Below, one piece after another: positions 11,460 to 32,108 of a stretch of 64,000 nt of DNA. The notes below the pieces were generated by a model, which was not told the origin of the DNA, did not search any database, and worked only from the letters and a program-made list of their open reading frames with translations. The position numbers and the translations under genes were made by a program. The first letter of the stretch is position 1. The number at the start of each line of letters is the position of its first letter. Source of the DNA: a virus (Duplodnaviria > Caudoviricetes); IMG/VR virus record IMGVR_UViG_3300005611_001698, positions 32,001 through 96,000 of that record; one strand, 5' to 3'.

Positions 11460-11500
11460 ATTATACACAAAAAAAGAGGGAGTGTCAATCTCCCTCTTTG
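11460..11500 (-). terminator. Rho-independent terminator overlapping a sigma70 promoter
   Basis: AAAGAGGGAG-ATTGACA-CTCCCTCTTTTTTT; TTGACA 11488-11483, N17, TATAAT 11465-11460. Confidence 0.85.
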
Positions 11501-11505
11501 ATTAT

Positions 11506-11640
11506 TCACTTTTTGATTTGAGCAAGTTGTGCTTGCTGACGACGCTGTTCTTTTTCAAGTTGATCTTTGATCAGTTGAAGAACATTGATTTTGTGATCTT
11601 CGACATTGTACTTAACACCACGATAAGTTGCGGTAGTCAT
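11506..11640 (-). CDS. DUF4278-family small protein (44 aa)
   Basis: Hand-translated MTTATYRGVKYNVEDHKINVLQLIKDQLEKEQRRQQAQLAQIKK; YRG motif; AGGAG SD. Confidence 0.85.
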   Translation of the reverse strand: MTTATYRGVKYNVEDHKINVLQLIKDQLEKEQRRQQAQLAQIKK

Positions 11641-11644
11641 TTGT

Positions 11645-11882
11645 TTACTCCTGAATGAATGGGGGGTTTAACCTTTTACCCTTTCGGGTGATCCGTTTCC
11701 CGTTCCTTCAATCGTTTGCGTCCCAGTTACAACCTCTTTCTGTTGCGTCTTTAATAGTATTGACAATTTCTACTTTGATTAAATCACTCATGTCTTGATT
11801 AGCCTTTGCCCTAGCAACAAGTTGCTTAGCATCAGCACAAACCAATTCAGCAGAAAGTAAAAATTCTAACATAGGATGAACG
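11645..11882 (-). ncRNA. Glutamine riboswitch aptamer 2 (Downstream-peptide / glutamine-II type) with greatly expanded P2 loop
   Basis: CGUUC-A-UCCUA...UGGGA-CGCAAACGAUUGAAG-GAACGG; P1 11882-11878/11705-11701; lies upstream of a DUF4278 ORF, the usual context. Confidence 0.75.
11708..11872 (-). CDS. 54-aa small protein nested inside riboswitch aptamer
   Basis: MLEFLLSAELVCADAKQLVARAKANQDMSDLIKVEIVNTIKDATERGCNWDAND; GGAG SD 10 nt upstream; two Cys. Confidence 0.75.
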   Translation of the reverse strand: MLEFLLSAELVCADAKQLVARAKANQDMSDLIKVEIVNTIKDATERGCNWDAND

Positions 11883-11884
11883 CT

Positions 11885-11925
11885 CCGTTCCGCGATTTAC
11901 TTGCGATCCCAAATGGGATTGAACG
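11885..11925 (-). ncRNA. Glutamine riboswitch aptamer 1 (glnA / Downstream-peptide family)
   Basis: CGUUC-A-AUCCC-AUUU-GGGAU-CGCAAGUAAAUCGCG-GAACGG. Confidence 0.75.
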
Positions 11926-11932
11926 TAAGGTC

Positions 11933-11984
11933 ATTATAGACCATATGCCTTATATATGCAAGTAGTTTTGTAAAATGTGATACA
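11933..11984 (-). promoter_or_regulatory. sigma70 promoter plus NtcA box
   Basis: TTGCAT(11961-11956)-N17-TATAAT(11938-11933); TGTA-N8-TACA at 11969-11984. Confidence 0.7.
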
Positions 11985-15061: not shown

Positions 15062-15150
15062 ACCATCAGGGAAATGGTGGTGTTACTATTCCTCAGGCAC
15101 CCTCATCCTGAGGTATGAGAGACGTGTTTATACTCCCCATAGGTCTCGGT
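15062..15150 (-). ncRNA. PhotoRC-II RNA motif (psbA leader)
   Basis: GAGAC..GUCUC, CCUCAGG..CCUGAGG and ACCAU..AUGGU stems in a phage psbA 5' UTR; recognised from memory of the family. Confidence 0.75.
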
Positions 15151-15202
15151 TAATGAGAGTTGCAACTGTTTAAGAAACGTTACATTCCTTAACGTGTTGA
15201 TG

Positions 15203-29746: not shown

Positions 29747-29756
29747 GGGTTAATAT

Positions 29757-29923
29757 GCTCGCCACCTGGTTTTTGAAAAGAACCAGGAAACTTTGCGGAT
29801 GTAGCGCACCACTTGCTCTTTATACGGAAGCAAGAAACCGTCGAGGGGTCCCGACCAGTGCTGTTATAGACCATCCGTGTCTTGGGTTTGACTCCACCAC
29901 CTAGTTTCAGGAACTAGGAAACT
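29757..29923 (-). ncRNA. manA RNA motif
   Basis: GACACGGAUGG..ACAGCACUGGUCGG core plus GUUUC-stem-UGGYG hairpin units; lies between tRNAs and GDP-mannose genes, the typical context. Confidence 0.75.
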
Positions 29924-30952: not shown

Positions 30953-31023
30953 TCGGGGCGGCAAGAATCGAACTTGCACCTCCGCGTCCCAAACGCGGCA
31001 TTCTACCACTATACTACGCCCCG
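30953..31023 (-). tRNA. tRNA-Pro (TGG)
   Basis: CCGCG-TTTGGGA-CGCGG anticodon arm, GTTCGA T-loop. Confidence 0.93.
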
Positions 31024-31112
31024 TGGAGGAAGAAGCGAGATTCGAACTCGCGGAGGCTACTAACCCCATCAGTTTTCAAGGCTGACGCAATCAACCACTC
31101 TGCCATTCTTCC
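31024..31112 (-). tRNA. tRNA-Ser (TGA)
   Basis: Long variable arm, CTTGAAA loop, encoded CCA. Confidence 0.92.
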
Positions 31113-31297
31113 ATATGAACAAACTGTTCTTGCATATTATAAAACAGTTTATGGGTTTCTGTCAAGACATAATACCCAACAATACTTTTACCATCATCTG
31201 TCCAACCATATCCCTTAACCCTCTCACATTTACCATCAATTGTAAAACACTTATCAGTGTGAAGATAACTCTGGTAACGGTCGTCCAGATTAATCAT
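31091..31297 (-). CDS. Hypothetical protein
   Basis: 68-aa ORF coupled (TAATG) to upstream gene; 3' end overlaps tRNA-Ser. Confidence 0.7.
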   Translation of the reverse strand: MINLDDRYQSYLHTDKCFTIDGKCERVKGYGWTDDGKSIVGYYVLTETHKLFYNMQEQFVHMEEWQSG

Positions 31298-31545
31298 TAA
31301 CGTACCTCAAAATCAAGTTTACGAACCTTTCGTTTACGTCGGTTCTCCTGGTATTCTAAGTCCTGTTTTGTTAGAATACCCTGATTATTTACAATCTTTT
31401 CAGAATTCAGTAATACTACTTTACTTAGGTCCGAGGCTGAAACCTTGTCCTCCCTCACCATCATCTGGTTGGGACAACCGCAGCACTGAGTCTTGTTGTT
31501 GCTTGTCAACTCTACATTGCAACTCTTGCATCTGACTGATAACAT
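31297..31545 (-). CDS. Zn-ribbon-like hypothetical protein
   Basis: CKSC..CCGCPN; C-terminal RRKRKVRKLDFEVR. Confidence 0.75.
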   Translation of the reverse strand: MLSVRCKSCNVELTSNNKTQCCGCPNQMMVREDKVSASDLSKVVLLNSEKIVNNQGILTKQDLEYQENRRKRKVRKLDFEVR

Positions 31546-31645
31546 CTTTTAACATTCCTTTAATTTCTTCTAGTTCTTCATGAATATCTTGATGATGAAA
31601 CCGAAGAGGTTTCTGAATCATTTCTTTGAGTTTTTTCTTTTTCAT
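31421..31645 (-). CDS. Hypothetical protein
   Basis: MKKKKLKEMIQKPLRFHHQDIHEEL; long overlap with next gene. Confidence 0.5.
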   Translation of the reverse strand: MKKKKLKEMIQKPLRFHHQDIHEELEEIKGMLKDVISQMQELQCRVDKQQQDSVLRLSQPDDGEGGQGFSLGPK

Positions 31646-31661
31646 ATATGTATGTAATAAA

Positions 31662-31733
31662 TGGGAGATACTGGGATCGAACCAGTGACTCATTCCTTGT
31701 AAGGGAATTACTCTACCGCTGAGTTAATCTCCC
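31662..31733 (-). tRNA. tRNA-Val (TAC)
   Basis: ATTCC-CTTACAA-GGAAT anticodon arm. Confidence 0.93.
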
Positions 31734-31903
31734 TACTCTGGTGGGGAAATATTTAAAATATATTCCACAGTATTCGCAACATCATTCATAGCATCACGAA
31801 GAAAAGGTTGTTGACCAGCCTCCATTAACATTGGATCTTTATGATCCGTAAGAGTCCATCTCCATTGTTTCATTTCTTCCGAGTACCACAAATTAATTTT
31901 CAT
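31733..31903 (-). CDS. Hypothetical protein (56 aa)
   Basis: Hand-translated MKINLWYSEEMKQWRWTLTD..LRDAMNDVANTVEY. Confidence 0.7.
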   Translation of the reverse strand: MKINLWYSEEMKQWRWTLTDHKDPMLMEAGQQPFLRDAMNDVANTVEYILNISPPE

Positions 31904-31939
31904 AATATGTTTTTTTGGTATTTATGGGCATGTGCCCAG

Positions 31940-32010
31940 AGCGAATGACGGGGATCGAACCCGTGACACCAACTTGGAAGGATGGGATGTTACCGCTACA
32001 CCACATTCGC
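31940..32010 (-). tRNA. tRNA-Gly (TCC)
   Basis: CTTCCAA anticodon loop; GCGAATG/CATTCGC acceptor stem. Confidence 0.92.
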
Positions 32011-32034
32011 ACGAATGAAGAGGAAAAATGACAA

Positions 32035-32108
32035 CGGGCAAGGAGGGATTCGAACCCCCGACCTACGCATTAGAAGTGCGCTATTCTAATCCACTGAACT
32101 ACTTGCCC
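32035..32108 (-). tRNA. tRNA-Arg (TCT)
   Basis: GCGCA-CTTCTAA-TGCGT anticodon arm. Confidence 0.93.

Follow-up and report, generated by a model that had tools for sequence, protein, structure and literature searches.

Control of the small gene gifB by both NtcA and a glutamine riboswitch, the host parallel on which a preliminary description of this DNA drew, is documented: NtcA represses the gene and the riboswitch switches it on (PMC6212724, PMC6316151). The combination of an NtcA site, a type-2 glutamine riboswitch and a DUF4278 gene is likewise already known in hosts, as in Prochlorococcus MED4, where the NtcA site lies over the start site (PMC6212724, PMC6316151). The NtcA consensus is GTA-N8-TAC, and a site that overlaps the start site is read as repressive (PMC6212724). 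Yfr6, the RNA of the host cassette, has a mapped start ∼20 nt upstream of the motif, and its level drops when nitrogen is depleted (PMC1242208, PMC2864571). Those glutamine riboswitches that have been tested act as translational ON switches, with glutamine stabilising a CGUUC/GAACG helix (PMC6212724, PMC6698751). Cyanophages are already known to carry glutamine riboswitches (PMC2864571, PMC9964418) and, in cyanomyoviruses, NtcA-type sites (PMC3037559); the latter study lists the sites of T4-like cyanophages genome-wide by motif and proposes activation.

The window analysed here, a stretch of 64,000 nucleotides, belongs to a complete viral record of 194 kb and bears the hallmarks of a T4-like cyanomyovirus: psbA, a ThyX-like gene and, all on the minus strand, a PhotoRC-II RNA upstream of psbA (15078-15172), a wcaG RNA (29751-29842) and a cluster of five tRNA genes (30953-32108). 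Its minus strand contains a self-contained unit of NtcA-type box, promoter, leader, small ORFs and terminator, in which every element named by the preliminary description was found in place. We consider it reasonably likely that this cassette is the phage version of the picocyanobacterial NtcA box, glutamine riboswitch and small DUF4278 gene, acting in the manner proposed below.

The cassette recurs widely. Matches to its region were found in 370 records of phages, almost all of Synechococcus or Prochlorococcus, and a DNA pattern scan with the conserved 3′ part of aptamer 1 located it in at least 120 IMG/VR contigs. This was far more than the four loci yielded by a protein-pattern scan of IMG/VR; a word-based protein search with ORF1 recovered its own cluster alone. 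The 120 contigs and the loci of cultured phages gave 118 distinct upstream regions, and in 98 of these a sigma-70-type promoter reached a score of 9 or more out of 12. The gene upstream of the cassette varies by phage (nrdC, thioredoxin, HNH endonuclease, 2OG-Fe(II) oxygenase or small hypotheticals). In two of the nine cultured phages, S-SSM4 and S-SCSM1, a single small gene separates the cassette from the upstream 2OG-Fe(II) oxygenase gene, which is on the same strand. Nitrogen is limiting for picocyanobacteria across much of the ocean, and a sizeable share of these cells is killed by cyanomyoviruses. A cassette that is present in hundreds of cyanophage genomes and would carry both known cyanobacterial nitrogen sensors (NtcA for 2-oxoglutarate and the riboswitch for glutamine) offers a direct and testable handle on how phages read the nutrient status of the host.

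The box, the perfect TGTA-N8-TACA previously described, occupies positions 11984-11969 of the minus strand (core GTA-N8-TAC, 11983-11970) and lies 8 nt upstream of the -35 hexamer of a TTGCAT-N17-TATAAT promoter. It fits the NtcA palindrome GTA-N8-TAC (minimal core GT-N10-AC) and has the flanking T and A. The box alone is not significant, because 10 copies of GTA-N8-TAC occur in the window where 7.4 are expected, and 26 of 100 shuffles give at least that many. The cassette box is the sole copy among these ten outside an ORF; in the whole genome, 6 of the 45 copies lie outside ORFs of at least 80 aa. A second NtcA-type box of the same genome, outside the window (G000:C1:116831-116844, minus strand), abuts TTGACG-N17-TATCAT and has its centre near -42.5.

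Conservation of the box was evident in the homologous loci. A perfect GTA-N8-TAC is present in 71 of the 98 distinct sigma-70-type promoters and absent from the other 27, and its offset from the -35 hexamer is nearly two-valued, at 8-9 nt in 55 of the 98 (the class of the window) and 2-4 nt in 15. The 76 boxes found across all 118 regions have 54 distinct N8 sequences with GTA and TAC invariant (consensus TGTATCAYATKWTACA), and the position of the box is constant despite the differing upstream genes. Retention in 71 of 98 promoters, the many N8 variants and the near-fixed offsets identify the box, at the level of sequence, as a selected protein-binding site of the NtcA type.

The sigma-70-type promoter (11961-11933, minus strand) consists of TTGCAT (11961-11956) and TATAAT (11938-11933), which predicts a start at ∼11927-11925. 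The first of the conserved blocks in aptamer 1, CGTTCA at 11925, lies 7 nt past the -10 hexamer; a start 6-8 nt past that hexamer would fall on the first bases of the aptamer, in agreement with the earlier proposal that the two coincide. The homologous promoters mostly read TTGACT-N17-TATAAT and lie 7-9 nt before CGTTCA (98 loci). The TTGCAT of the window matches TTGACA at three of six positions only, and a consensus promoter scan omitted the cassette promoter for this reason. With a -35 hexamer of this quality, the window promoter may depend on an activator to some degree. A conserved TAAATA or TATATA follows the -35 hexamer in the window (11945-11961) and in homologues, and TTGACTAAATA or TTGACTATATA is found in most loci. 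This element resembles the core of a T4 late promoter, lies a few nucleotides upstream of the palindrome described below, and may be a second, late start.

For a start 7 nt past the -10 hexamer, the box centre falls at ∼-50.5 in the class of the window and at ∼-44.5 in the other, a difference of ∼6 bp or roughly half a helical turn. The earlier placement of the box near -50 instead of the canonical -41.5 was thus reproduced. In NtcA-activated class II promoters the box is centred at -41.5, a TAN3T -10 element follows ∼22 nt downstream and there is no -35 hexamer; the cassette departs from this layout both in its centre and in having a -35 hexamer. TAN3T occurs at N20-24 from the box in the window (TATGGT) and in 18 of 58 homologues. 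A class II reading with TATGGT (11945-11940, N24 from the box) for its -10 sequence was rejected, as the element is not conserved. The repressed layout of the gifA/gifB type differs as well, since 8 nt separate the window box from the -35 hexamer downstream. A centre of -50.5 therefore coincides neither with -41.5, where NtcA is known to activate, nor with the -10 element or the start site, which its known repressing sites overlap. Core promoters score 10.5 of 12 with a box and 10.7 of 12 without one. We read the box as an optional modulator, given the 27 boxless promoters, of a promoter that would not need an activator, given the non-class-II position, the equal core scores and the ∼6 bp gap between the spacing classes. 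The literature examined held nothing usable on mapped cyanophage start sites or on NtcA-relevant infection under nitrogen limitation.

The -10 hexamer is itself flanked by an inverted repeat, GGTC/GACC (11929-11942), of which TATAAT is the loop. An inverted repeat ending at most 9 nt before CGTTCA is found in 113 of the 118 related loci, with 62 distinct arm pairs whose arms covary. This palindrome points to a hairpin in RNA started further upstream, or to another structural role; we count it against our best explanation, as it suggests that transcripts from further upstream also matter.

To compare the phage layout with that of hosts, 81 genomes of the Cyanobium/Synechococcus/Prochlorococcus family, reached via psbA loci and a family-wide Rfam search, were surveyed with Rfam. 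The first two reached via psbA (Cyanobium and Vulcanococcus) gave no Glutamine-II match; matches were obtained in 44 genomes, and 30 loci were compared. Each of the 30 is followed by a peptide of 33 or 55 aa with YRG repeats. In 29 of them, GTAGC-N4-GCTAC, at once a perfect NtcA box and a hairpin, lies 4-9 nt before CGUUCA; the single exception keeps the hairpin as GCAGC/GCTGC and has lost the box. A weaker element, GTATC-N5-GAAC (GTA-N8-AAC), is found exactly 34-35 nt further upstream in 20 of the 30. In the ∼100 nt upstream of the Glutamine-II matches, host loci thus have a pair of NtcA-type elements, always 34-35 nt apart; no mention of the distal one was found in the literature consulted. 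With the Yfr6 start ∼20 nt before the motif, the proximal host box overlaps the start site and the distal one is at -41.5. Seven of the 118 phage regions, including those of S-SSM5 and Syn30, keep the host layout exactly. The -10 element of such host-like phage loci reads TATAAATA. The window type keeps the host distal box, perfected after an apparent shortening of 3 nt.

These layouts bear on what the box and the promoter would do. If NtcA activated the cassette, the box would recruit RNA polymerase under nitrogen stress, transcription would increase at high 2-oxoglutarate, and the riboswitch would delay translation until glutamine is available. Activation of this kind has been proposed for cyanomyovirus NtcA sites in general (PMC3037559), and it would suit a phage box that is homologous in position and flanks to the host distal GTATC-N5-GAAC at -41.5 and has been perfected to GTA-N8-TAC, as well as the weak -35 hexamer of the window and the second box of the genome, which abuts its -35 hexamer with a centre near -42.5. 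However, the cassette box is 9 bp off the class II position, the ∼6 bp between spacing classes means that no single helix face is kept, the core promoters are equally strong with and without a box, no -10 element is conserved at N20-24, and host cassettes drop on nitrogen depletion (PMC1242208). We regard activation as possible but doubtful. That the box has no regulatory role here, and is a relic of host-derived DNA or the site of another factor, appears quite improbable. The 27 of 98 loci without a box, the lack of enrichment of the motif alone in the window and the non-canonical position would be expected of such a relic, but an invariant GTA and TAC around 54 N8 versions at fixed offsets would not, nor would a box that travels with the cassette beside differing upstream genes.

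A further alternative concerns the transcript and not the box. The main transcripts may start upstream of TATAAT, by read-through from a 52-aa gene or from the TAAATA/TATATA element near the -35 hexamer; the inverted repeat would then be a 5′ RNA hairpin as in hosts, with TATAAT merely lying in its loop. The covariation of the arms in 62 distinct pairs is consistent with such a hairpin, hosts and host-like phage loci have a hairpin there downstream of their -10 element, and no terminator separates the upstream ORF from the box. We still think this unlikely as the main route, because TTGACT-N17-TATAAT scores 10-12 of 12 and keeps a constant distance of 7-9 nt from CGUUCA across 98 loci. It is also compatible with the promoter, and both kinds of transcript may coexist. 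The reading preferred here remains that of a promoter firing from TATAAT and modulated through the box.

The leader downstream of this promoter begins with aptamer 1 (11928-11880, minus strand), a glutamine-riboswitch-like element composed of CGUUCA, the hairpin AUCCC-AUUU-GGGAU, a CGCA block and GGAACGG. An Rfam search of the window at gathering thresholds gave no riboswitch. In a relaxed search, 11880-11928 matched RF01704 (Glutamine-II) with 30.1 bits (E = 2.4e-5 in 801 bases) and RF01739 (Glutamine) with 28.5 bits, both under the respective gathering cut-offs of 33 and 35 bits; it is the only such relaxed match in the 194-kb genome. Aptamer 1 has the conserved blocks of Glutamine-II (CGUUCA, CGCA and GGAACGG), and the hairpin that separates CGUUCA from CGCA covaries. 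Pairs 1-3 of this hairpin are 96-100% paired among 96 distinct homologues, with C-G, U-A and A-U exchanges. The minimum free energy of the ORF1 leader computed with RNAfold was no better than that of shuffled sequences (z = -0.77), a value that is uninformative for a pseudoknotted aptamer. GGAG at the 3′ end of aptamer 1 is a possible Shine-Dalgarno sequence for ORF1.

In 39 of the 96 distinct homologues, the aptamer 1 hairpin encloses a conserved ORF of 65-68 codons (MLSILLALTLAHH...SCERF...; for example L003:765-1000, L020 and L022), in place of which the window has a plain 14-nt hairpin. The enclosed ORF mirrors the design of ORF1, with CGTTCATCCnATG at its start and TAGGA-CGCA at its end. 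Three aquatic metatranscriptome runs contain short contigs over 11867-11905, where word depth is hundreds of times that of the flanks; this may reflect many phage strains collapsed on a conserved stretch and is no measure of expression. The public RNA runs were sampled as small shares and are stored as contigs, which are blind to start site, strand and level.

The preliminary description had listed more than one glutamine riboswitch. The first stands as aptamer 1, below the Rfam cut-offs; the second is not side by side with it but is split around ORF1, and the two share bases. The 5′ half of aptamer 2, CGUUCA-UCCUA (11882-11872, minus strand), contains the second CGUUCA (11882-11877) and ends in the A of the ORF1 start codon. 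The 3′ half, UGGGA-CGCAAACGAUUGAAGGAACGG (11725-11700, minus strand), covers the final five codons of ORF1 along with its stop codon, so that it encodes the C-terminal WDAND and the stop. ORF1 itself (11872-11708, minus strand; 54 aa, phrog_504) thus lies inside the hairpin loop of aptamer 2, the halves of which are ∼150 nt apart. The relaxed Rfam search of the window gave no match for aptamer 2 as a contiguous RF01739 aptamer.

In 122 of 131 loci, the second CGTTCA is followed at a distance of 150-195 nt by a 3′ half. Pair 4 of the helix joining the halves is C-G in 68, U-A in 16, U-G in 4, G-C in 1 and mismatched in 1 of 90 sequences, and 80% of cells in the helix are paired as against 28-63% when the partner is slid. 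Such compensatory changes indicate from the alignment that the closing helix of aptamer 2 is maintained across ∼160 nt. In phage Bellamy, ORF1 is absent and the halves are joined by a UUCG loop, giving a match of 34.5 bits to RF01739 (cut-off 35). The 5′ half of the window is identical to the 5′ part of this unsplit second aptamer of Bellamy. Contigs from RNA libraries that join 11731 to 11865 represent further forms that lack ORF1.

Downstream of aptamer 2, the leader of ORF2 (11699-11641, minus strand) contains an insert, AAACGGAUC-hairpin (ACCC GAAA GGGU)-AAAAGGUU, followed by the Shine-Dalgarno sequence AGGAG (11652-11648). Homologues have either this long form of the leader or a short one, and RNAalifold found no consensus fold for the ORF2 leader with the two forms mixed. 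The insert of the long form, AAACGGAUC-hairpin-AGAAGGUU, loosely resembles a third, degenerate aptamer.

ORF2 (11640-11506, minus strand) encodes 44 aa with one YRG repeat. Its residues 1-26, which carry the repeat, match a DUF4278 type of 47 aa (phrog_5049), and its residues 17-41 are matched by phrog_545 and, at 56% identity, by the small gene that comes next in a close relative; by these matches, the ORF2 of the window is a chimera. Against DUF4278 (PF14105) it reaches 14.6 bits, below the Pfam cut-off of 25.3. The peptides encoded at this position in related loci are 38-55 aa long and have two YRG repeats; ORFs there in other loci reach 26.6 and 31.5 bits, above the cut-off. The designation as a DUF4278 peptide thus holds for the DUF4278-like N-terminal part and its YRG repeat, but not for the whole of this chimeric, single-repeat peptide. 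The suggestion that the peptide modulates glutamine synthetase fared worse. DUF4278 is the N-terminal part of IF17 and is dispensable for inactivation of glutamine synthetase (PMC6316151), which leaves a weak link and no support for a role of ORF2 in control of the enzyme. A Pfam search gave no match of the 44-aa ORF2 to the C-terminal IF7-like part.

The unit is closed by its own intrinsic terminator (11499-11466, minus strand), as had been recognised, with a 10-bp stem (11499-11473), a 7-nt loop and the T run TTTTTTTGTG. The loop holds a perfect TTGACA, with TATAAT 17 nt on (11460-11499, minus strand), before a 60-aa gene (phrog_878); the terminator and the next promoter therefore overlap.

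Together, these elements suggest how the cassette may work. Host RNA polymerase with the primary sigma factor would start at ∼11926 from TTGCAT-N17-TATAAT, and the transcript would therefore begin at aptamer 1. At high 2-oxoglutarate, that is under nitrogen limitation, NtcA would occupy the box and modulate the promoter; this is the least certain step of the scheme. Dampening under nitrogen limitation is tentatively favoured over activation, since it agrees with a riboswitch that is on at high glutamine and with the fall of the host RNA on nitrogen depletion (PMC1242208). By analogy with the tested host riboswitches, glutamine would stabilise the CGUUC/GAACG helices of the leader. The 3′ bases of aptamer 1 are shared with the 5′ strand of aptamer 2, and aptamer 2 could close only if UCCUA at the start codon of ORF1 paired with UGGGA at its end. 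As this pairing spans the start and the end of ORF1, translation of ORF1 and folding of aptamer 2 should exclude each other, and glutamine should shift expression to ORF2, the Shine-Dalgarno sequence of which lies downstream of aptamer 2. The terminator (11499-11473) would end the transcript unit.

A bolder interpretation, which we hold to be speculative, is that the phage has rewired the host nitrogen circuit: the start-site operator would have been dropped, the upstream NtcA site perfected in front of a strong early promoter, and the tandem aptamers turned into a translational toggle whose helices enclose whole small genes (ORF1, and the 65-68-codon gene in ∼40% of relatives). If this were true, glutamine and ongoing translation would jointly decide which of several peptides is made, and the cassette would be a two-input viral logic device, reading 2-oxoglutarate and glutamine, of a kind not described for any riboswitch.

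In the papers searched, no account was found of a phage cassette that links the three elements, of a displaced box in two spacing classes, of the difference from the two-box arrangement of hosts or of genes placed inside aptamers. Cyanophage glutamine riboswitches (PMC2864571, PMC9964418) belong to the same RNA family and the same phage group, and in the literature on them no split aptamer, shared bases or attached NtcA box was found described. The sites of Sullivan et al. 2010 (PMC3037559) and the box of the window are both GTA-N8-TAC in cyanomyovirus intergenic regions; in the part of that study considered here, no link from a site to a riboswitch cassette and no spacing analysis were found.

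The same two signals, 2-oxoglutarate through NtcA and glutamine through RNA, act on one small gene in Synechocystis gifB, which encodes IF17 (PMC6212724). The gifB riboswitch is of type 1, as is the unsplit phage aptamer 2, which in Bellamy matches RF01739 with 34.5 bits. For gifA and gifB, the core promoter itself contains the NtcA sites (-30.5 and -7.5), whereas the phage box lies at -50.5, and IF17 has a C-terminal IF7-like part that binds glutamine synthetase, whereas the phage ORF2, at 44 aa, is far shorter. The closest likeness is to the picocyanobacterial DUF4278/Glutamine-II genes (RF01704, Downstream-peptide), such as MED4 Yfr6/WP_071812974/PMM1846, which have the same order of parts: a box, a promoter, a hairpin or palindrome 5′ of CGUUCA, an aptamer and a peptide with YRG repeats. 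Within this common order, the window has the upstream box only, perfect and 8 nt before a true -35 hexamer, and its GGTC/GACC repeat occupies the place of the host start-site box and hairpin, GTAGC-N4-GCTAC. The two aptamers of the phage leader have bases in common, and a gene splits one of them; the phage aptamers score below the Rfam cut-offs, whereas host copies reach 33-75 bits. The phage layout therefore differs from that of the host in a definable way, in that the box has moved from the start site to a position upstream of a strong promoter.
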